DNA of 64,000 nucleotides from an uncultured Methanomicrobiales archaeon (GTDB taxonomy: Archaea; Halobacteriota; Methanomicrobia; Methanomicrobiales; Methanospirillaceae). The position numbers and the translations under genes were made by a program. The notes beneath the pieces are model-generated. The model was not told where the DNA came from. It saw only the letters and a list, made by a program, of their open reading frames with translations, and made no database searches. The DNA lies in contig OY969100.1 in the NCBI GenBank assembly GCA_963697895.1, forward strand, positions 576,001-640,000. Direction: 5' to 3'. Below, piece by piece: positions 34,353-61,440 of the stretch. Position 1 is the stretch's first letter; each line of letters opens with the position of its first letter.

Positions 34353-34652
34353 GAAGATCCCTGTCCATAATGGGTCAGGAATCCCCGAAATATCCGAGAT
34401 GTTCCGCCGGAAAAGACGTCCCGCCCCTGCGGTTTATGGGTCGGATCTTTTATCGGATGGGTTTAGGATATCCCTGATTTTGCCCAACTACTGGAGGGGC
34501 GCTATTAAGCACCTTTTTAACCGGCAGTTATCAATCCTATTCGTTAAAAAGCGGATTATATCGATATTTTTGAAGGCAGTGTTCAGGGTTTTCCCGACAT
34601 GATATGTTAATCTCTGCATTTTTGGAAAAATACAGTTAAAGAGGGGTTATTT
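34353..34652. repeat. ~300-bp dispersed non-coding element, copy 1 (behind histone 1)
   Basis: Anchors GGATGG 34455, GATATC 34467, AAGCAC 34507, GATTATATCGAT 34554, GTGTTCAGG 34579, GGGGTTATTT 34643. Confidence 0.9.
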
Positions 34653-34720
34653 CATGCGAATGGATCGACAAAAGAGGCGCATTGAAGTGAGAAAATAGGA
34701 AAGAGTAAAGAGGGATTGAT

Positions 34721-34927
34721 TTAAACGGATTTTGCCGCGAGCTCAACATCCTCTTTTTTAATCGTCTTTCGTCCTGCATGCATTGCATATTTATTGGCCT
34801 CTTTGGCCAGGGATGCAATGTAGTCTTCAGCCTTTGCCACGAGCGAGGCAGCTGCATCGTTACCGACGCGGTCTGCACCACTTTTCTTCGCAATTCGAAC
34901 AATTGCTGCAATAGGTAAATCTGCCAC
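34721..34927 (-). CDS. archaeal histone (HMfA/B family), paralog 1
   Basis: LPIAAIVRIAKKSGADRVG...AMHAGRKTIKKEDVELA; GTG start with GAGGT RBS. Confidence 0.96.
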   Translation of the reverse strand: MADLPIAAIVRIAKKSGADRVGNDAAASLVAKAEDYIASLAKEANKYAMHAGRKTIKKEDVELAAKSV

Positions 34928-35345
34928 CTTGATTACCTCAACAGATAGTTATTTATATTCTATTTATATCTTCCTGTCAAATTCACGATGGATCCTGCCG
35001 AAACCGAATTTTGAGTTTCCGAAATGCCACCGGGGTCGATCGGATTTTATATTTTTAAGGAAATTCACCGGGTAGGAAGGACGAAGGAATTTCTGCAATT
35101 CTTTGGAATCAAGGACATCCAGGCTCATCCAGATAGATCCCGAATCGAAGAGGAATACGAGAACTCTTCCGAACCTCGATCATTTAAGTCCATTTGTCGA
35201 AGAAAAGACAGAGGGGCCGGATTTGAGATTACCCGACCGAATAAATCATATCGGTTTTTCAGACAGCAAGAAGGGGCCACAGGCAGGAAGTCAAAAAGTT
35301 CGCCCCTCCCCAGCCGCCTTAAATTTCAGGTATCTTGTCAGCATA

Positions 35346-36751
35346 TCAGAAGCCGGTATAATCCCGTCCATCCCATTTTGCCCGGCCCTTCAGGTACAGC
35401 CACCAGGCAGGCAGGAGGAGAAGAGGGGCACCCATGAGAAAGATAATGCCTGATGCGGCAATGCCGGCGAGAAACAGAGTCGGTATTCCCAGGAGAATCA
35501 TATAAAGGAGGAATACCTTCGCATTGTACAACATAACCCCGGGAGAGAGTCCCATGAGGTAAACGGTAACCGCGAGGGCATAGAAGGAGACAGATCCCCA
35601 GACCACGAGGACAAACAGGAGGTAGCTGCCGTATCCCGTTATCAGGGAAACTGTGATGAGCAGAATGGCAGGGATCACCTGGAGAACGGAGTAGGTTGCA
35701 GCCTTGCTGGTGATCAGGCGGGCAACCCCGAGCGGGAGGCAGCTGTAGACGCCGGGCGTGTCAAACTCGGTTATCCACGTGAACATGGTGGATGAGATGA
35801 TCCCGGTGATCAGGGCAAAAAAAACGATCAATCCTCCCTCGAACAGCATGCCTGAAAGGAGCGAGAGGAAGAACCAGATGATTCCGAGGGGAAGGAGAAA
35901 GGAAAAGAGTGTATGGCCTATTCCATTCCCGCTCCGGTACAGATCAAGGAAGTCCTTTGTGGTCAGGGGGGCTCGGGGAAGATCCGGAGGTCGCGGGAAA
36001 CCGGCGTGAAGAGATCCGGGTAACATTTTTCCGTATCATGATACTCGGTGGTGAAGAGGCCGAAGGCGAGGAGAAAGGGAATAAAAATCAGCAACAGGGA
36101 AAGAACCAGTACGAGGGGGGAGAATGCAGCATACACAAGGAGCGGGGGGAAGAAGAGCAGCGGATTGATCCCGGTCGCGGCCCAGGCGATAACCCAGACG
36201 ACAATTCCTATGACAACGAGAACTGCCAGGACCAGCCGGGAACGGGTGTAAATGACCGAAAGAAGAAAGATTACGGAAAGACCACAGAGAAACGAAAGAG
36301 TGATCGAGAATAGGAAGAGCAGGGAGCCTGAAACTGGGATCCCGAGGAATGGTGAGGCTACCATGAAGCCGGCACCGAAGGGAAGGATCCAGAGGATGAA
36401 ATAATAGATGATATCCTTGATCACGAAGTTGAGAAAGATGAACCTCTCCGTGAACGGAAGCGTGCGGCCCGAATAGGAGAGGAGACTCGCATGCCCGAAC
36501 CTCCGGTTCATGACTTCTTTTCCCAGTAATCCGAATCCCCCGACCATCATGCCCATGACGACAAACAGCGCGACGGTGACAGAAAGGACACTCCCCCCCG
36601 GGATTGCCGCTCTTATGAGCGGGAGGAGGAGAGCGCTCATGACGGAGGCGGCAAATATCAGGATCGGGAACAGGGCGAAACTGACACTCCCAAAAAGGGT
36701 GGAGTGCAGCCGCCATTCCTCCTTCAGCATTGCGAAGAAGAGATCAAGCAC
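35346..36751 (-). CDS. multi-TM membrane protein, likely ABC exporter permease; one frameshift
   Basis: ORFs 35963..36889 and 35346..36026 join across the G/C homopolymer at ~35966-35971; follows the ABC ATPase. Confidence 0.75.
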
Positions 36752-37469
36752 CTGAACCGCCTGTGATAAGGGAGACAAAAAAGTCCTGAAGGTGCGTTCC
36801 GTTCTTACGCACCTCATCGATCGTTCCGCTGTACAGCAGATTTCCCCGGTGAAGGATGGCAATCTCAGAGCAGAGATCTTCCGCCACATCGAGGATGTGC
36901 GTTGAGAAGAATATGGTGTTGCCTGCGTGCACGTAATCCACGAGATATCTCTTCACCTTCTCCTGTACCAGGGGATCGAAATTGATCAACGGCTCATCGA
37001 TGACGGCAAGGACCGGGCGGTGGAGGAAGGCCTGGGCAAACATCAGTTTCTGCCGGGTCCCCCGGGAGAGGTCCTTGCAGAGCACATCCCTTTTTTCGGA
37101 GAAATCAAGGAAATCAAACCACCATGCGATCTGTTCGGCCGAATCGCCCAGGTTACGGACACTGCTCACAAAATGCAGATATTCTTTCGCGGTGAGAAAG
37201 CTCGGGGGTGATTCCTGTTCGGGGATAATGCCCACCCGCTCCCGCACCCGAATCGGATCCGTGGCAGGGTTGAAACCGAGAACCCGGGCCGAACCTCCCG
37301 TGGGCCGGATCTGACCGGTCAGCATTTTTATCATCGTGGTCTTGCCCGAACCATTGGGCCCCAGCAGGCCGAATAACGATCCTCTGGCGACTCCAATGCT
37401 GACCCCGTTCACCGCCCGGGTCTCTCCGTACTGCTTAGAAATTGTATCCGTGGCTATGACCTGTTCCAT
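36744..37469 (-). CDS. ABC transporter ATP-binding protein
   Basis: GPNGSGKT, LSRGTRQK, VIDEP, STH. Confidence 0.93.
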   Translation of the reverse strand: MEQVIATDTISKQYGETRAVNGVSIGVARGSLFGLLGPNGSGKTTMIKMLTGQIRPTGGSARVLGFNPATDPIRVRERVGIIPEQESPPSFLTAKEYLHFVSSVRNLGDSAEQIAWWFDFLDFSEKRDVLCKDLSRGTRQKLMFAQAFLHRPVLAVIDEPLINFDPLVQEKVKRYLVDYVHAGNTIFFSTHILDVAEDLCSEIAILHRGNLLYSGTIDEVRKNGTHLQDFFVSLITGGSGA

Positions 37470-37778
37470 GCTGCTCCTTCCTGTTGTTTATGCCAAAGGT
37501 CAGATGAACATTATTTTCACGTTCATGTACATTTTCGTAACGTATGAATTGGTGAGAACATGGAGAAAAATAATGTCATGCGTAAAATAAAATAAACAAT
37601 GGGGAGGATCAATACGCTCGAGAAAATTAGTGCGGGTGATCACGGCCCTTCTAAAATTACAATGGGCCGGTATTTTTCAAAATTTTAACGGGCCAAGTAG
37701 ACCCTGAACCCGCCTCTACAGAACTCTCCAGAGCCGCGTCGCATACCCTTTTCGTTGCCGGTGTCGAACAAGTCAGGA

Positions 37779-38588
37779 ATGATCCGTGAACGCTTCCCGG
37801 TAATCCTCGTACACGGGTGGAACAGCCACCCCGGGGTCTGGAAGAGACTGGTTCTCCGGCTCGAGGCACTTAAAATTCCCTGCCGGAACTTTGATCATAC
37901 GGGATTGTGCGATATGGCATTGCCGGAGATCTCCGGGGCACTCGGTGAATACCTGCGAGGAGTGCGGAACGAGAACGGCTGGTACGGGCCGGTCGATATC
38001 GTCTGCCATTCGATGGGGACATGCATCGTCCGGTACCTTCTTGAAGTGACAGACGGAACCGTACGAAGCCAGGCTGTCCGTCAGCTGATCGGCCTTGGAC
38101 CACCAAACAACGGCTCGGCACTTGCAGAACTCTTCAATGACCCGGTACGGGGTGAAGAGATCATCAACCGGCTCACCGGCGTCTTTGTCCCGCAGGGATT
38201 CGATCCGGTCTCCGACCGCATCGTTCAGGATGTACGACCGGGAAGCCCGGTCATGCGAACCCTTCGCACTGCCGGCTTACGACCAGACATCACCTACCGG
38301 ATAATCGTGACCACAAATCCCGAAGACATCCCCGGATTTTTCCCCTGGTTCGAGGGAAAGACCTGGGAGATTGACGGGGACGGAAGATACCGGGAGACCT
38401 TGGACGGGGACGGGGTGGTGCCGCACCGGGAGTCGGTTCTTCCGGGTATTTCTCTCGATATCCTGTCGGCATCCCATGAAAAGGAGGAGCATCTGCCGTC
38501 TCCTGAACGGTACTGCCATATCAACCTGCCGAAAAATCCCCTGGTCATCGACCGGATCATCCAGTATCTGACGAGTCAGGCGGGGTGA
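37779..38588 (+). CDS. alpha/beta-hydrolase (lipase/PGAP1-like)
   Basis: ILVHGW, nucleophile elbow CHSMG, GPPNNGS, DGVVP, C-terminal His. Confidence 0.85.
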   Translation: MIRERFPVILVHGWNSHPGVWKRLVLRLEALKIPCRNFDHTGLCDMALPEISGALGEYLRGVRNENGWYGPVDIVCHSMGTCIVRYLLEVTDGTVRSQAVRQLIGLGPPNNGSALAELFNDPVRGEEIINRLTGVFVPQGFDPVSDRIVQDVRPGSPVMRTLRTAGLRPDITYRIIVTTNPEDIPGFFPWFEGKTWEIDGDGRYRETLDGDGVVPHRESVLPGISLDILSASHEKEEHLPSPERYCHINLPKNPLVIDRIIQYLTSQAG

Positions 38589-38819
38589 GGGATAAACACA
38601 CAAACGGATAAAAATTTTCTACAACTCCGTAACCCGCCGGATAAATTGCCAAAACGGTATGAAATCTCATAACCCGATACCCGAGGGCGAAACTGTTCGT
38701 TCAGCTTTTAAGCCAGTAAGCCTGCCCGCTGGTCGCTGCCTGTTGGATTACCCTTATCTGATGGGATGTTCTACCTTATCCTGATAATCAGGAGTATCTA
38801 CAATCCGGAAGGAAATAAC

Positions 38820-39188
38820 ATGAGAATACACGCGATCGTTTTAATCCTGTTCATTCTCGCACTATCCATCGGTTGCGCCACGGCCAGCGGCGTCCAGATG
38901 GGCAGCTACATGGACGTTACTTATGTCAACGTCGTGACCGACACCAGCCTCCGGAGCTTCCCGGCATCCGCGGACGTCCCGGCCGAGGCATCGTACTCGA
39001 TCCAGGCGAAAGGTGTCCTTGTGCAGACCCCGACGGGATTCGTCCTGCAGCCGGCAACCGGCTCGATCACCGCATTCATGAATGTTCACACGCCGGACCT
39101 TGTATACTCGGAGACAACCACGGCCAGCGGGTACATCGACAACTTCGTCAAGAACATGTATTACCAGGACGGGGCATTCCGTATCTGA
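38820..39188 (+). CDS. hypothetical secreted protein
   Basis: Signal peptide MRIHAIVLILFILALSIGCATA; beta-rich mature part. Confidence 0.7.
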   Translation: MRIHAIVLILFILALSIGCATASGVQMGSYMDVTYVNVVTDTSLRSFPASADVPAEASYSIQAKGVLVQTPTGFVLQPATGSITAFMNVHTPDLVYSETTTASGYIDNFVKNMYYQDGAFRI

Positions 39189-39298
39189 ATGGTATATGAA
39201 CAGAGAGAGGAACGGTATCGATCTTTCCTTTTTCTCCTCTTTTATCAGCTCATTACCGGCAATGGCGGGAAGTTCAGATCATTCGCATGGCATAACCC

Positions 39299-40141
39299 AT
39301 GAATAGAATCACAAAAATCATAACGGTCTCTCCAGTCTGGATAGGGACATCGGTTGCGGTCTCCGTGCTGGTAACAGCATCCAGTCTCTCTGGGATCCTG
39401 CGGGAAAATACCTATACCCAAGAGACCTATCGCCGGGCGCTTCAGTCGACCGTTCAGGATTATGTTACCTTCACCGTAGTGATACTGCTCCTGGTCAGCA
39501 CCTGTTTTGTTGCGAACCATTCAATCAGGGGATATCTCGTCTGGCTGGGGGCCTGCCTGTACCTTCTCTATTCGTTTATGATCTCCTCCTTTGCTCTCCC
39601 CTTCTCGTTCCTGTTCCTCATGTACGTCCTGATCATAGGTCTGTCATTTTACACGCTGGTCGGCGGGATGATGGCGGCTGACTGGGATACGATCGCACCC
39701 GTCCTGCGGGGAAATCCGGTGGCAAAAGCGGCCGGCGCCCTGCTTCTGGTTATCGGCGTCGTCTTCTCCCTTTTTTGGCTGTCAGAGATCATTCTGAATC
39801 TTCCTGCTGCCATGAATTCAATGGTACCTTCAGATATGCAGATCCCGGTCAGCCCGGTGCATTTCCTGTTCCTGTGCATCCTGCTTCCGGGGATCATCAT
39901 CACCGCAGTCTTACTCTGGAAAGAGAATCTCCTTGGCTATTTCATGGCGGTGCCGTTGCTCGTTTTTGCCGCAGCTGTGGCGCTGGGGATAATTGGTCTG
40001 GTTATCTCTTCCGCCATCCACCACCTGCCGTACTCGGTGCCGGTACTCGTAATATCCGGAATAATTCTGGTATTTAGTACGTGCTTCTCCTGCCTGTTCT
40101 TAAAAGAGGTGAAACAGGATGGGAAAACCATCCGGCCATAA
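39299..40141 (+). CDS. multi-pass membrane protein
   Basis: About 8 TM helices; WLGACLYLLY motif. Confidence 0.75.
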   Translation: MNRITKIITVSPVWIGTSVAVSVLVTASSLSGILRENTYTQETYRRALQSTVQDYVTFTVVILLLVSTCFVANHSIRGYLVWLGACLYLLYSFMISSFALPFSFLFLMYVLIIGLSFYTLVGGMMAADWDTIAPVLRGNPVAKAAGALLLVIGVVFSLFWLSEIILNLPAAMNSMVPSDMQIPVSPVHFLFLCILLPGIIITAVLLWKENLLGYFMAVPLLVFAAAVALGIIGLVISSAIHHLPYSVPVLVISGIILVFSTCFSCLFLKEVKQDGKTIRP

Positions 40142-40262
40142 GCAGGTAAACACCCTGGGATGCGTACAGAACCCTCATGAATCTCCCTACCTGCACGTTC
40201 CCGGGTTCGGGATTCAGCAACGAGCGGGAATTTGCCAGATATTAATCGATTGAAGGGTCAAA

Positions 40263-40595
40263 TCAGGTCCGATCGCCTGATGAAAACGACCTCATGCGAT
40301 CATCTTTGTGCTGGTGGTATTCCACCATTCTCCTCGCCTCTTCGACCGCATGCGGTATTTCCGGGATTCCGGTGAAGAGAATGCGTATCCCGTCGATATC
40401 ATCCTTGAGATAGGCAGCTTCAGGATAGAGCAGGAGGGTGATCTCCCCTTCCGGCCCGAAATGATGCTCCTCAACCTCTCCCCGCATATACCGTTCCCGC
40501 TGCTGCGTTGTCGGTGCAGCATATTTATTCTCGAATCTGAAGATACCCACGATACTTCCTGGCCTGTCTGGCCCGATATACGTGAGGGTCTCCAT
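40263..40595 (-). CDS. hypothetical protein
   Basis: 110-aa ORF with normal codon usage. Confidence 0.6.
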   Translation of the reverse strand: METLTYIGPDRPGSIVGIFRFENKYAAPTTQQRERYMRGEVEEHHFGPEGEITLLLYPEAAYLKDDIDGIRILFTGIPEIPHAVEEARRMVEYHQHKDDRMRSFSSGDRT

Positions 40596-40687
40596 CAGGC
40601 GTTATTTAAGGTATGGCGGGCGGGCTGAAAATGAATCATTAAGCCCGGGTCATGCGTCAGTATATAGCGTGCCGGGAGAGATCGAAC

Positions 40688-40855
40688 TTATCTCCTTTTT
40701 TTATTCCTCTGGTTAGCAGCGATTTTTTCTTTGGACGTCATCGGGGCAGGGGTGTCCCTGGCCCCGGGACTCTTCCCTTCTGATCCTGCGGGTGCTTTTA
40801 CATCAGTGCTCTCCGGCCTGCGGCTTGAACCTTTCCTGTTGCCCTGATCTTTCAT
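40688..40855 (-). CDS. small basic, probably disordered protein (55 aa)
   Basis: Hand translation MKDQGNRKGSSRRPESTDVKAPAGSEGKSPGARDTPAPMTSKEKIAANQRNKKRR; not in the ORF track. Confidence 0.6.
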   Translation of the reverse strand: MKDQGNRKGSSRRPESTDVKAPAGSEGKSPGARDTPAPMTSKEKIAANQRNKKRR

Positions 40856-41103
40856 GATTACTCTTACGGTGCGTAATCACATAAACATGCTCTGAAAAAT
40901 AGCGAATTTAAACGGATGGAAAGCATATAATTCTCAATTTCACACTTGTTCCCCATAATTTATTCTGCTGGAGTATTATCCGGCCGCGGGTGTTTCAGAA
41001 AGACGAACGTGACCTAGATCCTCTGAAGAGGGCAGATCCCTGGAGCCGGGTAGATCTCGGGGACTTTCCGCGATTGGTGCCTTCGTGGGATCTTGTCCTC
41101 GGT

Positions 41104-41256
41104 TTATTTCTTTCTCTTCATCTTCGCCGCATTCTTATCCTTCAGGGAGTTGATCTTCTCCTTTGACAGGGTTTCTGCGGCCATGGATGGTGGAGGAGCT
41201 TTGGGATTATCCTTTGCCTTGTGGCCTTTTGCCTTTTGTTCGACCGGTTTTTTCAT
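41104..41256 (-). CDS. small Lys-rich, probably disordered protein (50 aa)
   Basis: MKKPVEQKAKGHKAKDNPKAPPPSMAAETLSKEKINSLKDKNAAKMKRKK; shares SKEKI and a basic tail with its neighbour. Confidence 0.6.
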   Translation of the reverse strand: MKKPVEQKAKGHKAKDNPKAPPPSMAAETLSKEKINSLKDKNAAKMKRKK

Positions 41257-41380
41257 GAGAATACGTGAATAGCTGGAAATATAAACATGTGCTTTGGAAA
41301 TCGTGATATCAACCTGCATTTGATATTAATCACCGCTGACTGGAGACCTTTAAAAATTCACCTTCCATCATTGAGAGCAT

Positions 41381-41728
41381 TCAATCAGGATATATACTAT
41401 CATGTCCGGGGCGATGAGCAGTCTTTGGGGCTTTTTTTGGAGGGATGGGGGTCAGGTCAAAGATGTACGTGCAGGAAAGGCATCTAAGTTTTTCTTCTGA
41501 TTCATCTATCAGAATAATATTCATACTATGACATTCCGGGCAGGTTATTCCCTCCGTGCCATCTTGTTTTCTGTATCCCCGGTCTAAGACGATCATATCT
41601 TCGGCGCATATAGGGCAGATATACCCAATCGCTACATATTGAGTGGTTATTCCCCCATTTTTACGCTGAAAGATGCGTTCAAGAATTGAATCACAAACCG
41701 GGCATTTTTTTGTCGGATGGTTTTCCAT
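41381..41728 (-). CDS. double zinc-ribbon protein
   Basis: CPVC, CPIC, CPEC and CLSC pairs. Confidence 0.7.
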   Translation of the reverse strand: MENHPTKKCPVCDSILERIFQRKNGGITTQYVAIGYICPICAEDMIVLDRGYRKQDGTEGITCPECHSMNIILIDESEEKLRCLSCTYIFDLTPIPPKKAPKTAHRPGHDSIYPD

Positions 41729-41871
41729 AGCAGATATTATGCATTCATACTTTTTTTTCCTACGCCTTTATTGCATATGTTCATGGGCCGCGGAATATCA
41801 TCACCCCGGTTTATGAATAATTTTCTCTATTTTCTTATCATCAAGGACAAAAATGAATTATACAAAAAAAA

Positions 41872-42762: not shown

Positions 42763-43005
42763 CTTCCTGTCGTTATTCAGTAAGAGATTGTCCCTGGATT
42801 AATACCTCATCCATGATCGGATCCTGGGGAGATTTCAGTAAACTCTATTTTCTTTATAATGTGGCGTTGTGAGATAATTTATCCCTGATGAGTTCAATCG
42901 GGAGTGAATGAAAGGATTAAGTGAAGAGATGAATGCGAAGAATGTGGTTTTGGTGCATGGGGCGAGGGCAGCATATATCGACCGAAAGCGTGGTGGGGGT
43001 TTAAT

Positions 43006-43312
43006 GATCTTAGTAAGGTGCAGTCCCATGCCGTTTCAGGAAGTTACGGATCTCCGCGTCAATCTGCCCAAAAAGTCGCCCTGCCCATGCGATTCAGGGG
43101 CCGGATCTTTTATTGGATGGTTTCCGATATCCCAGATTTTGCCCAGGAGCTGGAGGGGCGCTGTTAAGCACCTTTTTTCCCGATAATTCTCGTTTTTTTC
43201 TGATAAAGAGTGGGTTATATCGATAATTTTGGACGCGGTGTTCAGGATTTATTTTGTAGCAGGATGACGATCCCGGTTTTATGGGGAAATACGCATAAAA
43301 TGGGGTTATTTT
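43006..43312. repeat. ~300-bp dispersed non-coding element, copy 2
   Basis: GGATGG 43115, GATATC 43126, AAGCAC 43166, GGTTATATCGAT 43213, GTGTTCAGG 43238, GGGGTTATTT 43302. Confidence 0.9.
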
Positions 43313-43541
43313 TGGACAAAGGGAGGGAGATTAACTGGGATCCAAGAAGAATTGTCCTTCTCATCACGATAAATGTGAATTAAGGAGATACATTATTCCC
43401 CATAAAATCTCCCCACGTGATGAATCCTACCAAAAATCCAATACCATGATCTGCCCGCCAGGGAGCAAGAAAATGAGTCGGGGACTATCGGATATATATG
43501 GCGGGCCTTAAAAAAATACACGGAAAATGATCGTTTGGCAC

Positions 43542-43934: not shown

Positions 43935-44226
43935 CTTCGCCGTTTACCCTGTTATGATTTATGGAGAGGGATCAGAGGATGTCCTCATGACCTGTTTTCA
44001 AAATAAAGAACACTTGCATTATTCCCGCGATCTTTGTAAATCTCACCCATGAATCGGGCTTTGATTATTTTTTTCGATCTATCCTGATGGCGTCTGAACA
44101 TTATAAAAAAAAAGATTGCATCCTTTTTCTCAGGAGTCACCTGTTCGCATCGCGATCCTTGCTTCCGGATCAGGAGACTGACCGCCGGGTCTGTCCCCAC
44201 GCTGAACGGATTTCTCCGGCATGGGT

Positions 44227-46103: not shown

Positions 46104-46114
46104 ACTACCCTCCC

Positions 46115-47501: not shown

Positions 47502-48326
47502 ATGCAACATATTCCCGGAGCACTCATCGTCTCTCTTACCGATCTGGGATTATCGAATTACGAGGCACGCACGTACGCCGCCCTCGTCCTTTTCGACGCA
47601 ACAGAGGTAAAAGAACTGGTTGATTTTCTCGGGATCTCCAAACCCAGCGTCTATGAAAGTCTTGACAGGCTTACGGAAATGGGCCTTGCGGTAAAGAGAA
47701 ATTCAAAACCCGCAATGTACAGCCCGATACAGCCGGAAATAGCGATTAAAATCCTGATGGAACGCCACACGAACTCCGCGGAGATCGCCCGAAGCGAACT
47801 CAGCAAACTGGAGCAGGAAAAGATTCACACGGATCGTTCCGATGCAGTCTGGACCGTATACGGGGATTCAAATATCAATCATAAAATACAGTCCATGATC
47901 CGCAATGCCCGGCATAGTATTGAATGCACCATGGCTGAGCGATACCTGCCGTTGCTGGAAGGGGTCAGGCTCAAAAAGATCGACCTGAAGCTGACTGTCC
48001 TTTCGGAAGACCCTGATCTGATCGATACGCTGAAACAACAGTTCCCTGGCAAGAACCGGGTTATTACCGTTCGTTCTATAAAAACAATCCTGGAACACCT
48101 CCCCCGCTATCCCGGGATCGGCGATATCGGGAATTTCATCAAACTGGAAAATATCCTGGAACTGATCGTCGACGATGAAGAACTTCTCTCCATACCCCCG
48201 ATTCCTTCCATCCATATGATGGGCATGAACACCTCGAATAAAGCGCTGATCCTGCATTCACAAGCGATGAGCAGAGGGTTCTGGGCGATGACATTACAGT
48301 CGGGGGACCCTGACAAACAGAAATAA
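47502..48326 (+). CDS. TrmB-family transcriptional regulator
   Basis: LGLSNYEARTYAAL, ISKPSVYESLDRL, LIVDDEE; divergent from the ABC operon. Confidence 0.9.
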   Translation: MQHIPGALIVSLTDLGLSNYEARTYAALVLFDATEVKELVDFLGISKPSVYESLDRLTEMGLAVKRNSKPAMYSPIQPEIAIKILMERHTNSAEIARSELSKLEQEKIHTDRSDAVWTVYGDSNINHKIQSMIRNARHSIECTMAERYLPLLEGVRLKKIDLKLTVLSEDPDLIDTLKQQFPGKNRVITVRSIKTILEHLPRYPGIGDIGNFIKLENILELIVDDEELLSIPPIPSIHMMGMNTSNKALILHSQAMSRGFWAMTLQSGDPDKQK

Positions 48327-48505
48327 GATCCGCACCGGACCAGGCCGCTGCGATGCAGCTGAGGGATCATTGCCGGTTTCCATTTTTTTCTGGCAATTGT
48401 TGCAGTCCATCCGCATCTGCTCCGATGAATATATCCGACTGGCACAGTATCCCCGATGCCAATTATGATCGGGATATCACCGCATTTTTGGGAGAGAACC
48501 CCAAA

Positions 48506-48802
48506 GAAGATCCTTCTCCATCCTGTGTCAGGAAACCTCGTATATTACCGAATTCGGCCCAAAAAGAAGCCCCGGCCCTGATGTTTGGGGGGCGGATCTT
48601 TTCCGGGATGGTTGCTGATATCCATCATTTTACCCGTGTGCCGGAGAGGCGCTGTTAAGCACCCTTTTAATGCGTAATTCTCACTCTTATTTTCGAAAGA
48701 GCAGATTATATCGATAATTTCAGAGGCGGTGTTCAGGATTTAGTTCGGAGGGGAATGGCGATGCCTGTTTCATGGAGAAATATGCTCAAACAGGGATTAT
48801 CT
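48506..48802. repeat. ~300-bp dispersed non-coding element, copy 3 (behind histone 2)
   Basis: GAAGATCC 48506, GGATGG 48606, GATATC 48617, AAGCAC 48657, GATTATATCGAT 48704, GTGTTCAGG 48729. Confidence 0.9.
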
Positions 48803-48843
48803 GGGGATGTTTAAAAGTACAGAAAGGAAAAAAAGAGATCGAT

Positions 48844-49050
48844 TCAGGCGGACTTTGCCGCGAGCTCGACATCCTCTTCCTTGATCGTCTTTCGTCCTGC
48901 ATGCATTGCAAGTTTATTGGCCCCTTTGGCCAGGTTTGCAATGTAGTCTTCTGCTTTCGATACCAGTGCAACAGCCGCTTCGCTTCCGACGCGTTCTGCA
49001 CCACTTTTCTTTGCAATTCGTACAACTGCAGCAATAGGTAATTCTGCCAC
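48844..49050 (-). CDS. archaeal histone (HMfA/B family), paralog 2
   Basis: MAELPIAAVVRIAKKSGAERVG...LAMHAGRKTIKEEDVELA; 55/68 residues identical to paralog 1. Confidence 0.96.
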   Translation of the reverse strand: MAELPIAAVVRIAKKSGAERVGSEAAVALVSKAEDYIANLAKGANKLAMHAGRKTIKEEDVELAAKSA

Positions 49051-51148: not shown

Positions 51149-51200
51149 CAGGGAAATTGATGGGAATAAGATCAAGCGGATGATCCAGGTGGGCGCGGGT

Positions 51201-52534: not shown

Positions 52535-52766
52535 AATTTGCTCCGATGAAAGATATCCAGAATCAGAATTTAAAAATGGGAAATAAATTGATAAGACTGC
52601 ATTTAGTTTGAAAAGAAAACCAGGTGATTTAAAGACTCATTTAATAAAATTGGGTTAACGAAGGAGGATACATAACTTGTGCCTATGACAGGAGGCACCA
52701 AGGACACGACAGAGCGAGTGCATACAATAGGACGCAACAGGTGCAGGATATTCAAACGTGACAATA

Positions 52767-52810
52767 TCCGTGCAAATTATGTATTGGGATAATATCCGTT
52801 AACTTGCACG
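52767..52810. repeat. ~45-bp imperfect direct repeat, right copy; itself bounded by CGTGCAA/TTGCACG
   Basis: TCCGTGCAAATTATGTATTGGGATAATATCCGTTAACTTGCACG. Confidence 0.5.
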
Positions 52811-52834
52811 ATTAATCGGTATCCTCGCCCTGTG

Positions 52835-55177: not shown

Positions 55178-55273
55178 TCATGAGTCCCCTGCTGTATGTA
55201 TCGCTCGCGTTTTATCTTATTTGAGCACCATAGTATTCAGATTTAAATTTCCGCCCGGATGGGCGGCATTTAT

Positions 55274-56650
55274 CTAGGAGCGATCCCGACGCCGCCGCCA
55301 GAGCCAGTACCCGCTTCCCAGGATACCTACTGCTATAATGCCCAGGACAAGAGGATTTACCAGTATCGTCGCAATACCGGAATCTTTGACCACGGTTATC
55401 CGGAGTTTGAAGGGGTCGGATACCACGCTGTTGTCCAGGGCGTCCCTGAACCGTACCTCCGAATCAAGCCCGTATTCCTTTGGGGTCGCCGCTCCATCGA
55501 CAGAGATATCAAAGGACGCCTCCTTCGTCTCCCCCGGTGCGAGGGTGCCCAGATATGCGGTGTCATCACTGCTGGTGAACGGGTCGACGGCACTGATGCG
55601 GGCCTGGGCGCTGTAGACGGTGGCACCGCCGGTGTTCTGGTATTGAACGGTAATTATCTTTTTCTGGCCCGGCGAGACTTCAATAGGACCGGAAAGGACG
55701 GTAAATGCCACCTTTTCACCGACCGGAATTCCGATGGTCGTTGGGTCGGTATCGACCACATCTCCTTCCCCATTCTCGTAGTTGATGTATACATCAAGCG
55801 GATAGGTTTTGCTCTCGGCATCCTTGTTCACGGAGATCTTAAATTGAGTCGTTACCTCCGCCCCTTGCGGGAAATCACCGATATACGTGCTGCTGTCCGT
55901 CGGGATGACAGGGCTGTTGTCATTGCGGGCGATCTTCAGGATTGCTTTTTTCCCGTCTTCCTGCCCGGTGTTTTGTATCACGAGGTTCAGGTACCCTTCC
56001 GTTCCTGCATTCATATATTCTGTATCGGATGATATAATGGAGAACTGAAGTTCCTGCCTGATTTTGACCGGGAGCAGGAGCGTCTCATTCACTGTCCGGT
56101 ACATATACTGGATGCTGTCCGTCCCGTACTGATCTGCCTCCCACAGGTAGGTGTACCGGATGTTAAGGGGAAGATCATAGGTGCCGAATGTCGCATTCCG
56201 GGGGATTTTTACATCAAACTTCACCAGGGTGCTGCTTCCACCCGTGATGTCTCCTATCATCTGGGGATCGCTTTTTATGACGAGTGGGGAGTCTCCTGAA
56301 CCCAACGCCAGGGTTACCAGCTTGGCAGTATTCGGCAGGTCATCCCGGTCGATTATACCTGACTGGACGAATTTAAATTCGTTGAGTCCGTTATTCTGGA
56401 GCCGCACCGAGATGACCGCATCGTCGCCCGGCACGAATTCATTCGTTCCCGAGACGGCTGCAGTAGACTCGGGTGAGCCGGCCATGTATTTTACACCGGC
56501 ACTTGCGGGGGAGATCACGATGAATGCAAGTACGATCGAGATGAGGATTCCGAACCCCAAAAGTCTGTACCGTGAACCTGGTCTGGTGTTGCCGGGAAAT
56601 AAAGTCTGATTGAGGGCATTTGATCCCGTTGTTTTCTCTTTTCTGAACAT
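55274..56650 (-). CDS. COG1361 S-layer family protein
   Basis: Signal peptide, three beta-sandwich repeats (QNTG, YLGTLAPGE), C-terminal TM-RRRR; upstream of the RND exporter. Confidence 0.85.
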   Translation of the reverse strand: MFRKEKTTGSNALNQTLFPGNTRPGSRYRLLGFGILISIVLAFIVISPASAGVKYMAGSPESTAAVSGTNEFVPGDDAVISVRLQNNGLNEFKFVQSGIIDRDDLPNTAKLVTLALGSGDSPLVIKSDPQMIGDITGGSSTLVKFDVKIPRNATFGTYDLPLNIRYTYLWEADQYGTDSIQYMYRTVNETLLLPVKIRQELQFSIISSDTEYMNAGTEGYLNLVIQNTGQEDGKKAILKIARNDNSPVIPTDSSTYIGDFPQGAEVTTQFKISVNKDAESKTYPLDVYINYENGEGDVVDTDPTTIGIPVGEKVAFTVLSGPIEVSPGQKKIITVQYQNTGGATVYSAQARISAVDPFTSSDDTAYLGTLAPGETKEASFDISVDGAATPKEYGLDSEVRFRDALDNSVVSDPFKLRITVVKDSGIATILVNPLVLGIIAVGILGSGYWLWRRRRDRS

Positions 56651-56785
56651 CTTTGCATCCTCTTGGAGTAATAAAAATTTTTACTACTAATGTATCTACC
56701 CATGTTTGCTGGGAACTTTAAAAAAAGTATCTGTGGTTAAAGTAAAAGTTATCAATCTGATCAGGATGGAGATGAGGATCTTACT

Positions 56786-57080
56786 GAAGATCCTTTTCGT
56801 GCTGCGCCAGGAACCCTGTATCTCCCCGAAAACGGCCCCAAAAGACGCCTCGCCCCTGTGGTATCGGGGGTATATCTTTTATCGGATGGTCTGCGATATC
56901 CCCGATTTTATCCTCGTGCTGAAGGGGCGCTATTTAGCACGTTTTTGGGCGGCGATTATCGTTTATTTTCGTTAAAGGGCGGATTGTATCGATGATTTTG
57001 AGGGCGGTGTTCAGGGGTTTTCTGAGAGGGGGATAGAGACTCCATATTTTCGGGAAAATACGCCCGAATCTGGGTTATTT
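56786..57080. repeat. ~300-bp dispersed non-coding element, copy 4 (left border of the AT-rich island)
   Basis: GAAGATCC 56786, GGATGG 56884, GATATC 56895, TAGCAC 56935, GATTGTATCGAT 56982, GTGTTCAGG 57007, GGGTTATTT 57072. Confidence 0.9.
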
Positions 57081-57211
57081 GGATATAATAAGAGCAATAT
57101 CTATTAAGAAGTGAGGGTTCCTATTAAAGCTGTTTAGAAGTTTTTTGTTGAAGAAGAAGAGGAAAATCGTACAAAATAAAATAATAAATGCGATGATATT
57201 ACATTCTTATG

Positions 57212-57712
57212 TCATTTACTCTTTCCGTTTGTTGATTTTAATAAGTTATTCAGTTCTTTTTCTATTATTTCATCAGTTACTCCATATTGCCTTTCCAAAT
57301 TACGACATATTTCTGTGAGTTGAGTGTCAACACTTTCAAGTGATAAATTTATTTCTTCAAGTTCTTCTACCATAAATTCTCGTCCATCTTCAGTATTCAT
57401 CTGGATTGCTCGATCCCAAAAATAATGATGTGTAAGCCAATTTCTTTTGTCCAAAGCTTCTCGTATTGTTACTTCAAATTTATCGGAAATCTCTATTTTT
57501 TGGGTTAAATGTTTAATTAAATGACCTAATGTTTTATGGAAATAAGAATTTAGTAAAATATCATATGAGAGGTGAATCTCTTTGTCGCGTTCTTGAAAAT
57601 CTAATATTATTAAAAGAATCCCCAGCTGACGTTCAATACATTGGTTAAAATAGATTGCACTACCGAATAGAGCATAAATTTCTTTTATTTCCTCTTCAAC
57701 ATGGGAATTCAT
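57212..57712 (-). CDS. hypothetical helical protein with HEPN-like RxxxxH motif
   Basis: TLGHLI...ALDKRNWLTHHYF. Confidence 0.65.
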   Translation of the reverse strand: MNSHVEEEIKEIYALFGSAIYFNQCIERQLGILLIILDFQERDKEIHLSYDILLNSYFHKTLGHLIKHLTQKIEISDKFEVTIREALDKRNWLTHHYFWDRAIQMNTEDGREFMVEELEEINLSLESVDTQLTEICRNLERQYGVTDEIIEKELNNLLKSTNGKSK

Positions 57713-57910
57713 GAATATTAGAGTATTATGGCAGACTAATATTTTTTTGGGTGATGCTTACTTATGGGATTCATATCTTAATCGAAACGAACCCGTCTGT
57801 ATTATTTCACCAATCGAAAGTAAGTTTAGGGTATTATTGATTGGCAAGATCTGATCCATTTTTTTCTCAACCTGAATTCTTTTGTAAATACGAGATTACA
57901 TTTTGTTTAT

Positions 57911-59575
57911 TCATCTCGATCGTAGTTTGTCAATTGTTTTTTTGATTTCTTTCGGGATACAGTTTGTTTTAATCATTTCCTTTGCAACATACTTTCCTAT
58001 TCGGGGTTTACTATTACCAACTACTTTTTGAGCATCTTGCCGGAGGGTTTCTGGAAGGATTGCCTCAAAGTCTTGTTTTAAAATATAAGTTTTTTCTCTC
58101 CGATATTTGATTGGAATTTTTCTTAATTCTTCTTCTGCATCGCCATCTGCAAGCATTAAATATGGAATTTGAAAACTCTCACACAATTGTGCAAAAATGG
58201 AAAAGTTCGATTTTCCATTTACGTTTATAATACTGATTCCATTTTCATCAAATGGATACCACAATTTTTTTGCAAAAATAGGGATTGCTCCATACTCAGT
58301 TGGTCCCTCAACAAGCAAAACTTTTCGAGCAAAAAACAATTCTCTACTATCAACATCTAATAAATGTTCAAATTTTAAATAATCAATATCATTGAAAAAT
58401 TTATCCGGCAATGTAAAGATTTTTGTTTGAGCATTTTCCTGAACGAATCTAAATATTTTATGGGTCTTATCAATCTTTATAAAATAGGGTGAGTGAGTTA
58501 TGAGTATTATTTGCATATCTTTAGATTCATCGATAACTGCTGCCAAACTTCGCGCCGCATGAGGATGCAAATGGAGCTCCGGATGATCTACAATGATTAT
58601 CTTTCCCTTATGTGCGATTATATGCGTTATCAGGAGTAAGGATTCCAATATCCCTGCACCAATAAAATACGTTGTCGATTCCACACCGGATTTTTGTGTA
58701 TGGATTTTAATTTCATCATTTTCTTTTATGACATCTAATTCGAGATTTGAGAATATTTTGTGAAATTTTTCTCGTATCTTTTCAAATTTTTGTTTGTCTT
58801 TGGGGCGTCCGTTTTTTAAATTAAATAAGATGCTTGCTAGACTTCCGCCTGTTGGCGACACCAATGACGGATTCAATTCTTGATCGGGTTTTTCACGATA
58901 CTCATCGATAGAAATAATATTTTCCTTTAGAAAATTAAGAAACAATTTAGGAATGGGTTTTTCAAATAAGATTTGGACAGATGATATATCAATTTTTGAT
59001 GCGATTCGATCCTCCTCCAATTTTTTAGATTCTTCCCACTTCAAAAAAAATAGATCTCTAATTGATTTTTCGAATGATTCAATTCTTCCAAGATTAACTA
59101 ATTCTCTCCAAATAACACCATACTGAGCTTTGACGACTTCCGCATCACCTACAGTACCAGAGTTATTTATTATACGCATTTTTCCGAGAATAAAATGCGA
59201 GTCTGGTCGATCCGTTGGAGTCTTAATCAATATCTTATAAAATAATTGATTAGAGAATAATTTTTTAAATTCTTCATTTGATACGTTTATCGGCTCAAAA
59301 AAGGTTTTAATCTTAGATATTTCGTCATCGTTAAAAAGAATATTTAAGGAAAATTCAATGGTCTTGTTTTGATCGCTTTTATACCAATTTTCAGCATCCC
59401 ATGGAATTGACGAATCGACATCCAAATTTATCATCATTTTAATTGCTTCAAAAATGGATGATTTTCCTACATTGTTTTCCCCAATAAAAATTGTAGAGCC
59501 TAAGGGTAATGAAAATTCCAGTCCTTTCTCCCCAATCGATCGAAAATTTTTAATGAATATCTTTTGTATTTGCAT
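57911..59575 (-). CDS. OLD-family ATP-dependent nuclease (ABC-type ATPase plus TOPRIM)
   Basis: IKNFRSI, Walker A GENNVGKS, Walker B region IIIVDHPELHLHP, ITHSP, TOPRIM LLVEGPTE...GK...ADGD. Confidence 0.88.
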   Translation of the reverse strand: MQIQKIFIKNFRSIGEKGLEFSLPLGSTIFIGENNVGKSSIFEAIKMMINLDVDSSIPWDAENWYKSDQNKTIEFSLNILFNDDEISKIKTFFEPINVSNEEFKKLFSNQLFYKILIKTPTDRPDSHFILGKMRIINNSGTVGDAEVVKAQYGVIWRELVNLGRIESFEKSIRDLFFLKWEESKKLEEDRIASKIDISSVQILFEKPIPKLFLNFLKENIISIDEYREKPDQELNPSLVSPTGGSLASILFNLKNGRPKDKQKFEKIREKFHKIFSNLELDVIKENDEIKIHTQKSGVESTTYFIGAGILESLLLITHIIAHKGKIIIVDHPELHLHPHAARSLAAVIDESKDMQIILITHSPYFIKIDKTHKIFRFVQENAQTKIFTLPDKFFNDIDYLKFEHLLDVDSRELFFARKVLLVEGPTEYGAIPIFAKKLWYPFDENGISIINVNGKSNFSIFAQLCESFQIPYLMLADGDAEEELRKIPIKYRREKTYILKQDFEAILPETLRQDAQKVVGNSKPRIGKYVAKEMIKTNCIPKEIKKTIDKLRSR

Positions 59576-59749
59576 TAAACGTCGTTTCCCTGTTCAGTTA
59601 TTGCTTCGTCATTCCTTATTTTTATTTGCCTGCCTGGACTGTCGCCATCCGATAGCAATTGTATTTGTAGAACACCATTTTACAAAAGAATCAGAAATAC
59701 ATTAAATAATAAAAAAATGGATAGAAATGATAAATAATGAAAGTTATCG

Positions 59750-61024
59750 GTGATTTTGATGGGGGTTAAACGTGATGATTTAGTAAAGGAACTATTATCT
59801 ACCTTGGAATTTAGTGCGAAAGGTGTAATAATCAAAGGAGCTGAAAATGTAGCATCATATCAAATACTGTCGAATTCTCTAATGTCTGAATTAATTAGGG
59901 ATGGTTATGATGGAAAATTAAATAGAATTCGTTACAAACTACCAGTACCTCGGGGATCTAATATTTCTTTTCCCTTTATATCTTCTTTGAGAAAGTTGCA
60001 TGAAAGTGGCAATCAATCTTATTCTCATCTTAAGGGTTTAATTGATGAGGAAATCTCACAAATCGAAGTTAATGTTCCTATTGAAAAATTCTCTATTTAT
60101 TTTCAAATTGGAGTTACTTTCGATACAAAATTAAAACCGGTAATAATTCAGGACACTTCATTCAATATTTTACAGTTCCAAGATCTTGAACAATTAATGA
60201 AAGATCCAGAATTAATAAGCAAAACAGCAGAAATTATGAAGTCAGAAGGATTCGATATCATCTTTAAGGACTTTTCATATCTGTTTACGGAAATCTATGC
60301 AAGAAATGAAGATTATGCAATTGCACATACTCTTGAAAATGCAAATTCATTAGTATCAATTTTAACATATCAGAAATATTGGAATCAAGAATCAATCACT
60401 GCTTTAGGAATTCCTTCTTCGTATACAAATTTAGATATAAATGCGATTTTCGTTTTTAAAGATTCGAAGTTCATTAATATTCATTATACACCCTCTACTT
60501 CAAAAATGACCAACATATCATTTAACAACAGTGAAATTAAAAAAATAGAGGAATTTAATAATAGATTACAAAATGCTCATGACAAAAATAAAGATATTAT
60601 CCTTCAAGCTTTGAATGTTTATCATATAGGTCTAACCGAAGAACGCATGGGGATCGCTCTTTTTAATTTCTGGGTTGCCATTGAGAAGATATGCCTTAAA
60701 AATGAAAGCATAACGGAAAATGAAGTTAAAAAACGTGTCTCCACCTTTTTAAATCCTGATGATGAATACCCATTAGACCGACTTTATGAACTTCGGAATC
60801 AAATTGCGCATCACTCTGCTTATGAATTGGTAAATCAATATGATCGAAATTTAATAAAGCTAATATCTGGTATCTCAATTCATTTCTTTTTAATATATTT
60901 GGCACAATTTCATCCACAGGAAATACAAAAAATATTTGTTTTTTTAAAGGATGATAATTCTCAACTTATTAGAGATAAAGAATATATTGATTATATTTTA
61001 AAAATTAGAAAAAACCATCGATAA
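59750..61024 (+). CDS. C-terminal HEPN-domain protein (ApeA-like architecture)
   Basis: ALFNFWVAIEKIC helix followed by LYELRNQIAHH (RxxxxH). Confidence 0.7.
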   Translation: MILMGVKRDDLVKELLSTLEFSAKGVIIKGAENVASYQILSNSLMSELIRDGYDGKLNRIRYKLPVPRGSNISFPFISSLRKLHESGNQSYSHLKGLIDEEISQIEVNVPIEKFSIYFQIGVTFDTKLKPVIIQDTSFNILQFQDLEQLMKDPELISKTAEIMKSEGFDIIFKDFSYLFTEIYARNEDYAIAHTLENANSLVSILTYQKYWNQESITALGIPSSYTNLDINAIFVFKDSKFINIHYTPSTSKMTNISFNNSEIKKIEEFNNRLQNAHDKNKDIILQALNVYHIGLTEERMGIALFNFWVAIEKICLKNESITENEVKKRVSTFLNPDDEYPLDRLYELRNQIAHHSAYELVNQYDRNLIKLISGISIHFFLIYLAQFHPQEIQKIFVFLKDDNSQLIRDKEYIDYILKIRKNHR

Positions 61025-61171
61025 AAAGTTTTCTTTTGCGATTAATATTATTCAAAATTGAGTATGTTGTTAGAAAGATGTCTCGAAGTAATAAAGGGCA
61101 GGCATGTCATTTTTTATTCATATTTAATGGAGCATAAAAATATTGGATTATACATAAATAATACGTATAAA

Positions 61172-61440
61172 CGGGATCATTCGGATTATCCCGAATCGGC
61201 CTAAACAATCCTTCTTTGCGGTTTTGGAGGCCGTAATTTTTATCGGATGTTCTATGATATTCCTGATTTCACCCTCGTGCTGGAGGAGCGCTAGTAAGCA
61301 CCTTTTTAGGCAGCGATTGTCATTCTTTTTGGTTAAAGGAAGGATTATATCGTTGATTTTGAGAGCGTGTTCAGGGGTTTCCGGGTAGAGGCAAGGTAAT
61401 ACCCATTTTTTGGAAAAATACGGTGAAAAAAGCATTTCGG
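61172..61440. repeat. ~300-bp dispersed non-coding element, copy 5 (inside the island, ends more diverged)
   Basis: GGATGT 61245, GATATT 61256, AAGCAC 61296, GATTATATCGTT 61343, GTGTTCAGG 61367, TTTTTGGAAAAATAC ~61407. Confidence 0.85.

Follow-up and report, generated by a model that had tools for sequence, protein, structure and literature searches.

We found that the five non-coding units in the window (a 64-kb stretch of genomic DNA, whose coordinates are genome coordinates minus 576000) share a rigidly spaced, promoter-like core with helically phased A/T tracts and probably act as protein-binding sites on DNA. Our preferred explanation, which is put forward tentatively, is that they are ~300-bp cis-acting modules specific to the Methanoregulaceae, vertically inherited and maintained by selection, each forming a protein-DNA assembly site with the anatomy of a promoter or an insulator. 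The original prediction had described five co-oriented copies of about 300 bp. All five were recovered on the + strand of the window by nhmmer and their non-coding nature was confirmed, but the unit is ~340 bp rather than 300 bp long. When aligned, the five copies show 68% mean column identity. Their positions, and those of two neighbouring histone genes given as context only, are as follows.

34353–34697, + strand: unit copy 1 (nhmmer E 2.6e-93), left part plus core; core by the profile model 34499–34652, TATA-like block 34554–34565, predicted start ~34585
34721–34927, − strand: archaeal histone gene (PF00808, E 3.4e-15), convergent with copy 1
43015–43355, + strand: unit copy 2 (E 6.8e-97); core 43158–43311, TATA-like block 43213–43224, predicted start ~43244
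48506–48846, + strand: unit copy 3 (E 1.4e-95); core 48649–48804, TATA-like block 48704–48715, predicted start ~48735
48844–49050, − strand: archaeal histone gene (PF00808, E 1.7e-14), convergent with copy 3
56787–57124, + strand: unit copy 4 (E 4.9e-96), at the left edge of a low-GC island; core 56927–57082, TATA-like block 56982–56993, predicted start ~57013
61166–61479, + strand: unit copy 5 (E 8.5e-78), the most diverged, within the low-GC island; core 61288–61436, TATA-like block 61343–61354, predicted start ~61373

The motif spacing that had been read by eye was reproduced exactly: measured from GGATGG, the motifs fall at +11, +51, +98 and +123 in copies 2 to 4, and within 1 bp of these offsets in copy 1 (+12, +52, +99 and +124) and copy 5 (+11, +51, +98 and +122). 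The count of 101 identical bases out of 132 in an ungapped comparison of copies 2 and 4 was likewise obtained again. The TATA-like block varies slightly, with G for A in copy 2 and TTTAGCAC in copy 4. As had been stated, no nhmmer match was present in the first 34 kb of the window, and for each of the five copies there is a minus-strand ORF whose end lies no more than ~90 bp to the right. The one beside copy 2, of 174 aa, matched no family and may not be a gene. Across copy 4 the GC content falls from 0.53 to 0.31; the low-GC island that this copy borders, and that holds copy 5, adjoins a tRNA gene.

A profile search of the 2.09-Mb genome yielded 16 copies, 11 of them outside the window, so that the family is not limited to this region. 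Of 150 other Methanoregulaceae genomes sampled, 52 also had the ~160-bp core, and by genus it was present in 9 of 19, counting the genus of this genome. Exact matches to the signature among the genomes of 185,579 species numbered seven, all seven (7/7) in Methanoregula or Methanoregulaceae. A metagenome scan for the element gave 60 loci; the metagenome search with the signature type of this genome gave no match, and none of 67 loci came from its close kin. Full units are at most 69% identical in pairwise comparison, yet their blocks are invariant. At one pair of orthologous loci, with flanks 75–78% identical, the units share 58.7% identity with 10 gap columns, and at other orthologous pairs across species unit identity is 77–89%. 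Since the blocks stay intact at orthologous loci, neutral decay is disfavoured, and selection appears to maintain the module in this methanogen and its relatives. Some copies are paired head-to-tail, with periods of 304, 306 and 397 bp. This extent, across the genome and across the Methanoregulaceae, was missed by the original prediction, as was the promoter-like anatomy of the core.

The 16 cores align over 161 almost gapless columns with 66% mean column identity and contain invariant blocks. Read from the left, the core shows a dyad, a GC-flanked A/T hexamer (GCTAWWTWGCA), which is followed by A/T tracts phased at ~10.25 bp and, 42 bp after the dyad, by a BRE/TATA-like box. An invariant GTGKWCA block lies 16 bp beyond the box and places a C-A step at the position expected for an archaeal transcription start. 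The left part of the unit, ~140 bp located 5' of the core, evolves faster than the core. In the WW profile, about seven consecutive A/T tracts span ~65 bp between dyad and box. The ~10-bp phasing reported earlier is borne out: WW power at 9.75–11 bp exceeds the 95th percentile of the 300-bp windows of the window in all five copies, and dinucleotide shuffling gave p values of 0.000–0.020, although these five tests are not independent because the copies are homologous. The column-mean WW profile of the 16 own units peaks at 10.25 bp, as does that of 53 divergent units from other genomes, a set ascertained by a pattern fixing three of the blocks (4-column block permutation, p<0.001 in both sets). 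Column conservation is itself periodic at ~10 bp. With the rigid spacing of the ~160-bp core, the 10.25-bp phasing, which is conserved between genera, and the lack of any coding or fold signal (see below), these results uphold the idea that the target of selection is DNA geometry and not a protein or RNA product. That part of the earlier interpretation therefore stands, but its specific proposals of histone nucleation and of a recombination platform are not supported.

Within the units, a BRE/TATA matrix trained on the 46 tRNA upstream regions of this genome recurs only at the TATA-like block and on the + strand. Seven of the 16 copies carry a + strand box of at least 7 bits, against 0.16 expected, while the other nine (9/16) score lower, with copy 4 at 0.0. 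As a promoter model the matrix is weak, and conserved A/T blocks in general look like a TATA box. Among the 53 foreign units the same box scores in 31 on the + strand and in 42 on the − strand; as the box of the relatives is palindromic and scores better leftward, it may be just a symmetric binding site and not a promoter. The unit resembles an archaeal basal promoter in i) the A-rich, BRE-like stretch preceding a TTAWAT-type box, which in some of the copies matches the tRNA promoters of this genome, and ii) the pyrimidine-purine step at the expected distance. It also resembles archaeal promoters with activator or operator sites in having dyads upstream and, in the relatives, just downstream as well. 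Unlike a basal promoter, however, it is conserved over ~160 bp, far beyond basal need, lies mostly elsewhere than 5' of a gene, is rare in divergent regions, and has a box that is symmetric in the relatives.

The nearest downstream gene is co-directional at 8 of the 16 copies in this genome and at 15 of 36 loci in relatives (convergent at the other 21), so the module is not a conventional gene promoter. No common family was found among the downstream co-directional genes, and hence no regulon is evident. In the window, the ORF ahead of each of the five copies is convergent. In the relatives and metagenomes (n=33), 13 loci are convergent (21% expected, p 0.015) and 2 divergent (27% expected, p 0.003), these statistics including orthologous, non-independent loci. 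We infer protein binding, transcription and an effect on neighbouring genes. In the mechanism that we propose, the phased tracts would bend the DNA or permit its wrapping toward one face, the dyad and the box would dock a sequence-specific factor together with TBP/TFB, and the assembled complex would serve as a stand-alone promoter and/or insulator sited at gene ends. A transcript from any window copy would then enter the 3' end of its convergent neighbour in the antisense direction, both histone genes included. The units are dense in runs of five or more T (5.6 per kb on the + strand and 2.8–4.9 per kb on the − strand, compared with 1.35 per kb genome-wide), which may also halt read-through.

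To our knowledge, conserved non-coding DNA elements of archaea are almost undescribed beyond origins, promoters and CRISPR loci. A ~300-bp family with 16 copies here, found in about a third of the sampled family genomes and orthologously retained, provides a concrete, testable substrate for the questions of how archaea read helically phased DNA through their chromatin or basal transcription machinery, and whether they place dedicated insulators or antisense promoters at the ends of genes. Should the module be a portable regulated promoter, it would define a new regulator and regulon in environmentally important methanogens.

Several other readings were weighed against this protein-DNA assembly site. 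The units do not encode a protein: as had been noted, they share no ORF, stops occurring in all six frames of every copy, and no period-3 signal was detected (p 0.98 for the 16 cores and 0.70 for 7 units), which speaks against a coding or decayed gene. A CRISPR leader was rejected on the basis of our own k-mer scan: the tandem repeats in it were all short, with six units or fewer and mostly with periods divisible by 3, and none of them adjoins a unit of the family. A structured non-coding RNA was rejected as well. The Rfam search gave no match to the unit with an E value under 0.9, its matches in the window being two tRNAs only, and RNAalifold detected essentially no conserved fold on either strand in the 16 cores, the 16 units, the 7 full units or the 53 foreign units. 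The energies for the 16 copies were −1.2 to −1.9 kcal/mol, the covariation terms for the 7 full copies were positive, and the 53 units from other genomes gave only short local dyads. A small RNA gene whose function does not depend on folding, such as one for a cis-antisense RNA or for an RNA that acts in trans and has a variable middle of ~35 nt between conserved ends, would account for the conserved promoter if the whole gene had been duplicated, and would fit the promoter-like box, the conserved block that coincides with the predicted start, the conserved patches that reach ~+70 to +95 past the start on either side of the variable ~35-nt segment, and the free-standing placement independent of neighbouring genes. 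We consider such a gene very unlikely. Besides the Rfam and RNAalifold results, the units have no common terminator position, the first T5 run ranging from +5 to +629 after the predicted start; a putative terminal stem, present in 8 of 16 copies versus 5.7 ± 1.7 in shuffled controls, does not exceed these controls; the best target of the variable segments has an E value of 0.04, equal to that of shuffled controls; and the upstream, untranscribed half is better conserved than the putative RNA body. It is also quite unlikely that the units descend from a selfish non-autonomous repeat of MITE-like type, which would have spread in an ancestral member of the Methanoregulaceae and now survive as a relic in safe intergenic havens, its conserved blocks being former binding sites of a transposase or recombinase. 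Such a history would agree with a dispersed multi-copy family that includes head-to-tail pairs, with convergent enrichment and divergent depletion as for tolerated insertions, and with the location of copies 4 and 5 at and in the island by the tRNA gene. MITE-type repeats and the units are alike in size, copy number and non-coding intergenic location. However, the ends of the units are fuzzy and the interior is most conserved; near-identical copies are absent (≤69%), no target duplications could be identified, and orthologous loci of different species retain their copies with the blocks intact. In agreement with the original prediction, there are no conserved terminal inverted repeats (weak pairs differ from copy to copy, and the sole common inverted pair, GAAGATCC/GGATCTT in copies 1 and 3, is internal) and no partner transposase. 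The genome is nearly free of transposase and recombinase genes with respect to three Pfam families: PF00589 (tyrosine recombinase) has one match, at 32 kb of the genome and far from the copies, PF07282 (TnpB-like) one weak match at 1.55 Mb, and PF01548 (IS110) none. As for the suggested recombination platform, no copy has a recombinase gene close to it. The unit had no match among IMG/VR viral contigs, plasmids and phages. A MITE or IS end was accordingly disfavoured, there being no terminal inverted repeats, no cognate enzyme among the three Pfam families and no match to mobile DNA. The bacterial REP/BIME, ERIC and Correia families are short, non-coding, multi-copy intergenic repeats, often at gene 3' ends or in convergent gaps, for which binding of architectural proteins or promoter/terminator activity has been reported; their hallmarks are palindromes, hairpins or terminal inverted repeats. 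The units, by contrast, lack a conserved hairpin or terminal inverted repeat, are defined by rigid linear spacing and helical A/T phasing, and occur as few, old copies in an archaeal host.

A closer competitor, which we regard as somewhat unlikely, is chromatin positioning, in which the phased tracts place a wrapped particle, either an archaeal histone tetramer or another oligomeric architectural protein, for instance one of the Lrp type, at gene ends, where it serves as a boundary, capstone or roadblock and the sequence blocks are secondary. It overlaps with the protein-DNA assembly site and differs only in the bound protein and in whether transcription starts there. The 10.25-bp phasing as top spectral peak in the 16 own and 53 foreign units (p<0.001), the approximately seven consecutive tracts over ~65 bp from dyad to box, the ~10-bp periodicity of conservation and the preference of the copies for gene ends all argue for it, as do the five histone loci encoded by the genome, although WW periodicity and out-of-phase G/C are non-independent measures. 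The invariant non-A/T blocks, namely GTGTTCAGG and the GC clamps of the dyad, require an explanation beyond phasing. The two histone genes said to lie behind copies are both genuine (PF00808) and their products are 82% identical to each other, but linkage to histones is not a family trait: only 2 of the 16 own copies adjoin histone genes, and no histone gene was present in 488 kb of sequence from relatives and metagenomes, comprising 92 loci with the element. The linkage is local to this genome. Work on HMfA/B (PMC10151503) argues against the idea that the units nucleate hypernucleosomes: it concludes that a positioning sequence of high affinity, to which a closed tetramer binds, "is unable to act as a nucleation site". 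According to the same paper, natural counterparts of positioning sequences of the Clone20 (HMfA/B) and 601 (eukaryotic nucleosomes) type have not yet been found in genomes; by its description, these sequences resemble the units in alternating A/T with G/C about once per helical turn, whereas the units add specific, invariant blocks that go beyond the needs of positioning. It is unlikely that the units are natural chromatin-organising elements, that is, wrapped-particle sites at gene ends and island borders that bound hypernucleosome spread or read-through; if they were, they would be the natural counterparts of Clone20/601-type sequences, and if their phasing reflects wrapping by histones or architectural proteins, they would be the first examples of such positioning elements in nature. 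It is extremely improbable that the units are origin-like or Orc1/Cdc6-binding sites consisting of an A/T-rich, unwinding-type region and an ORB-type dyad. The copies of relatives and metagenomes do have a TTCC-NN-TGGAA dyad at a constant distance of 5 nt after GTGKWCA, and the dyad of the relatives matches the arms and spacing of the four ORBs at the origin of this genome, sharing with them the conserved 'TTCC' and 'GAA' core motifs given in PMC1904270. However, the copies of this genome lack the dyad: the window has 26 matches, where 26.7 are expected, and not one of them is in a core. These copies also have neither a G-string at ORB spacing nor an inverted ORB pair, and no orc1/cdc6 gene adjoins them. 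PMC1904270 also indicates that Pyrococcus Cdc6/Orc1 does not bind isolated 13-bp mini-ORBs outside oriC in vivo. A replication origin or ORB cluster was rejected: the real origin of this genome has ORB dyads with a G-string, arranged as inverted pairs about an A/T-rich region beside orc1/cdc6, and the window units have no ORB dyad. The two orc1/cdc6 genes of this genome lie at 1.71 and 2.07 Mb, and its own origin, upstream of orc1, carries four matches to the ORB TTCCAGTGGAAA-N5-GGGGTC, compared with 0.13 expected.

The module is a real, lineage-specific piece of non-coding DNA that appears to be kept by selection. An nhmmer profile built from its five copies and run over the genome (G000, a single contig, C1, of 2,091,725 bp) recovered all of them on the + strand, confirming their common orientation, and gave no match in positions 1-34 kb of the window, from which copies had been said to be absent.

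Copies of the module in the window (nhmmer profile matches, window coordinates)
34353-34697, + strand, copy 1
43015-43355, + strand, copy 2
48506-48846, + strand, copy 3
56787-57124, + strand, copy 4
61166-61479, + strand, copy 5

These five align with a mean column identity of 68%. Their rigid spacing was reproduced: with the GGATGG anchor as zero point, copies 2-4 have the four motifs at +11/+51/+98/+123, copy 1 has each of them one base later, and in copy 5 the last motif stands at +122, within the 1 bp originally noted; copies 2 and 4 agree at exactly the hand-counted 101 of 132 ungapped bases. Genome-wide, the profile found 16 copies, located at 72, 243, 467, 610-637, 735, 1356, 1485, 1609 and 1840 kb. 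Six are full-length (copies 1-5 and one at 735 kb on the opposite strand), one, at 1.61 Mb, is intermediate, and nine match over the ~160-bp core only, six of the latter standing head to tail in three pairs, whose periods are 304, 306 and 397 bp.

Head-to-tail pairs of units in the genome
G000:C1:72519-72975, 432 bp upstream of a UDP-GlcNAc 2-epimerase gene
G000:C1:1485191-1485648, between two PKD/SdrD-type surface-protein genes
G000:C1:1839793-1840342

Since the short-type copies have the ~140-bp left part in a diverged version of their own, every copy is a ~300-bp unit. The 16 cores align over 161 columns, almost gap-free, with 66% mean column identity; the left parts of the 16 copies also look gap-free when aligned, which is in part an effect of their extraction at equal length. 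The analysis rests on the core and on landmarks inside each subfamily.

A sequence-only profile of the core matched 52 of the 150 further genomes sampled from this family, spread over 9 of 19 genera (that of G000 counted). In an earlier sample of 16 genomes from the order's other families it matched one, weakly. In a collection representing 185,579 species by one genome each, the fixed-spacing signature (dyad, N42, TATA-like block, N16, GTGKWCA) had seven exact matches, every one in Methanoregula/Methanoregulaceae; it also occurred at 60 metagenomic loci. A literature search returned no description of such an element in Methanoregula/Methanoregulaceae, which does not prove that none exists.

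Within G000 the copies are 50-69% identical, no two units exceeding 69%, yet they hardly vary in the blocks GCTATTAAGCACC and GTGTTCA. Other lineages have copies at orthologous loci. In one orthologous pair the flanks are 75-78% identical and the unit 58.7%, with only 10 gap columns; in the other pairs the flanks are 75-92% and the units 77-89% identical. Judged from these alignments, the divergence pattern is that of old, vertically inherited, constrained DNA and not of recent transposition or neutral decay. No close relative of G000 for an empty-site comparison was found: the G000-type signature had no match in the metagenomes, and none of 67 loci proved closely related to G000.

The reported ~10-bp phasing of A/T tracts was borne out. 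Each of copies 1-5 exceeds the 95th percentile of 300-bp windows in the power of A/T (WW) dinucleotides near 10 bp; as the copies are homologous, the column-mean WW profile is a stronger test than the power of each copy. The strongest period of that profile is 10.25 bp, both in the 16 G000 units and, independently, in 53 unique units of relatives and metagenomes (4-column block-permutation p <0.001 in both sets). Column conservation is likewise periodic at ~10 bp, and the ~65 bp from the dyad to the TATA-like box hold about seven consecutive A/T tracts. The A/T phasing is thus a conserved property of the element family.

When a 16-nt BRE/TATA matrix learned from the upstream regions of the 46 tRNA genes of G000 was used to scan both strands of the 16 units, a single position recurred, on the + strand at the GATTATATCG block (at least 7 bits in 7 of 16 copies versus 0.16 expected; individual scores 0 to 10). 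The implied start is predicted at a C-A step within the invariant GTGTTCAGG block, and a GC-clamped A/T dyad, GCTAWWTWGCA, lies upstream of the box. Of the 53 units of other genomes, 31 have a scoring match to this box in rightward and 42 in leftward orientation. Inverted GAAAAT arms flank the box there and turn it into a ~30-bp palindrome, so that it may be either a promoter with symmetry or no more than a symmetric binding site. On both strands T5+ runs are ~4-fold enriched. Copies 1 and 3 have in common an internal inverted repeat, GAAGATCC ... GGATCTTTT, with arms ~80 bp apart (window 34345-34360 / 34443-34458 and 48500-48513 / 48594-48607), which encloses the GC hairpin in the left part.

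In the window, each of copies 1-5 is directed towards a convergent ORF and its 3' end, as the claim that each lies downstream of a minus-strand stop codon implied. Among 36 loci of relatives and metagenomes, the closest ORF downstream runs in the same direction as the module at 15 and is convergent at 21, and the upstream neighbour presents its gene end at 25 of 33. Jointly, the 33 loci, not all of them independent, comprise 13 convergent (21% expected), 2 divergent (27% expected) and 18 tandem contexts. Where the downstream gene is co-directional, its family differs from locus to locus (sugar-nucleotide enzymes, surface proteins, a hydrolase, a GTPase), and no shared gene family or regulon was found. 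The module is not a conventional gene promoter. Outside the window cluster, where the ±100-kb GC skew is ~0, orientation tracks the sign of that skew ('+' at 72 and 1840 kb; '-' at 243-467 kb and 735-1609 kb); as the values are tiny (0.000 to 0.024), the polarity relative to replication is suggestive and not significant.

Rigid spacing, A/T phasing conserved at ~10.25 bp and a core of promoter-like or palindromic form characterise the module. We tentatively regard it as a putative protein-DNA assembly site that would, at gene ends, act as an insulator or stand-alone promoter. An overlapping reading, as a putative wrapping or positioning site, appears less likely. Two copies had been noted directly behind histone genes, both of which are real (PF00808); G000 has five histone loci. 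The proposed linkage did not hold beyond these: histone genes neighbour only 2 of the 16 copies (copies 1 and 3), and none occurs in 92 element-bearing loci of other genomes (488 kb). The flanking genes are mutually unrelated except for the two histones (82% identical). Co-duplication of a histone-element segment was rejected, copies 1 and 3 being just 65% identical and not mutually nearest. Erkelens et al. 2023 (PMC10151503) conclude that the closed tetramer which binds a high-affinity site is unable to start a hypernucleosome but might serve as a barrier, and that Clone20-like sequences have not been identified in genomes. The suggested nucleation site is therefore disfavoured; a boundary role may apply.

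That the units are relics of a selfish repeat is unlikely, given their orthologous retention with constraint, identities of at most 69% and the absence, as first noted, of conserved terminal repeats. A classical mobile element was rejected on the latter two grounds and on the near absence from G000 of matches to the three recombinase and transposase Pfam families searched (one distant tyrosine recombinase match, one weak TnpB-like match, no IS110), and a mobile origin because viral contigs lacked the fixed-spacing signature and plasmid and phage collections any match. The suggested recombination platform, integron-like or otherwise, fell with the absence of an integrase near the copies, and a CRISPR leader with that of arrays in a k-mer scan of our own. 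A coding unit was discarded; there is no common reading frame, in line with the original observation, nor a three-base periodicity of substitutions. An unstructured small-RNA gene is quite improbable: no common oligo-T end follows the predicted start, and the variable segment has no more antisense targets than shuffled controls. A conserved RNA fold was sought in six ways and rejected. Rfam searches, run with gathering thresholds and by E-value, matched only two tRNAs in the window and had no meaningful match within a unit; RNAalifold gave -1.2 to -1.9 kcal/mol for 16 cores or 16 units on either strand; seven full copies gave weak folds with positive covariation terms, 53 divergent units short local dyads only, and a candidate terminal stem was no better than shuffled controls.

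Least probable by far is an origin-like site. Its basis lies in relatives: Methanoregula-type copies have a TTCC-NN-TGGAA dyad behind the start block, always 5 nt past GTGKWCA (e.g. L074:1048-1058 and L082:2974-2984, two element-bearing loci), whose centre in 15 loci matches the ORB core form on both strands. Its arms and their spacing equal those of the four ORBs (TTCCAGTGGAAA-N5-GGGGTC; 4 matches versus 0.13 expected), two per orientation around an A/T-rich centre, of the probable replication origin of G000 upstream of orc1/cdc6 (G000:C1 ~1710515-1711325; L136:1516-2325 in the stretch around that gene). However, the window units lack this dyad, so that the reading fails for the copies of G000, and isolated mini-ORBs are, according to a Pyrococcus study (PMC1904270), not bound by Cdc6/Orc1 in vivo. 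A second, weaker cdc6-like gene is present at 2.074 Mb.

Several neighbours of the units are worth recording. A TrmB-family transcriptional regulator gene (window 47502-48326, +) ends 180 bp upstream of copy 3, probably by coincidence, since it occurs at one locus only. The sixth full copy adjoins a 166-aa ORF (G000:C1:735607-736107, minus strand) with a signal-peptide-like N-terminus and 72-nt (24-aa) tandem repeats. At L053, an element-bearing locus, the downstream ORF (L053:1935-2618) matches an NAD-epimerase profile only from position 89 of 240, and the 286-bp gap between ORF and element would hold the missing N-terminus; the gene may be frameshifted or broken, or the sequence in error. 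Finally, a ~6.7-kb low-GC island (window 57000-63700, GC ~0.30 versus ~0.53) ends at a minus-strand tRNA gene (63701-63775; tRNA-Glu by aragorn) and encodes an OLD-family AAA/TOPRIM nuclease (57911-59575), an 8xMP membrane protein (61472-61969) and ORFs without family match, with no integrase gene within it; copy 4 lies exactly at its left edge and copy 5 inside it.
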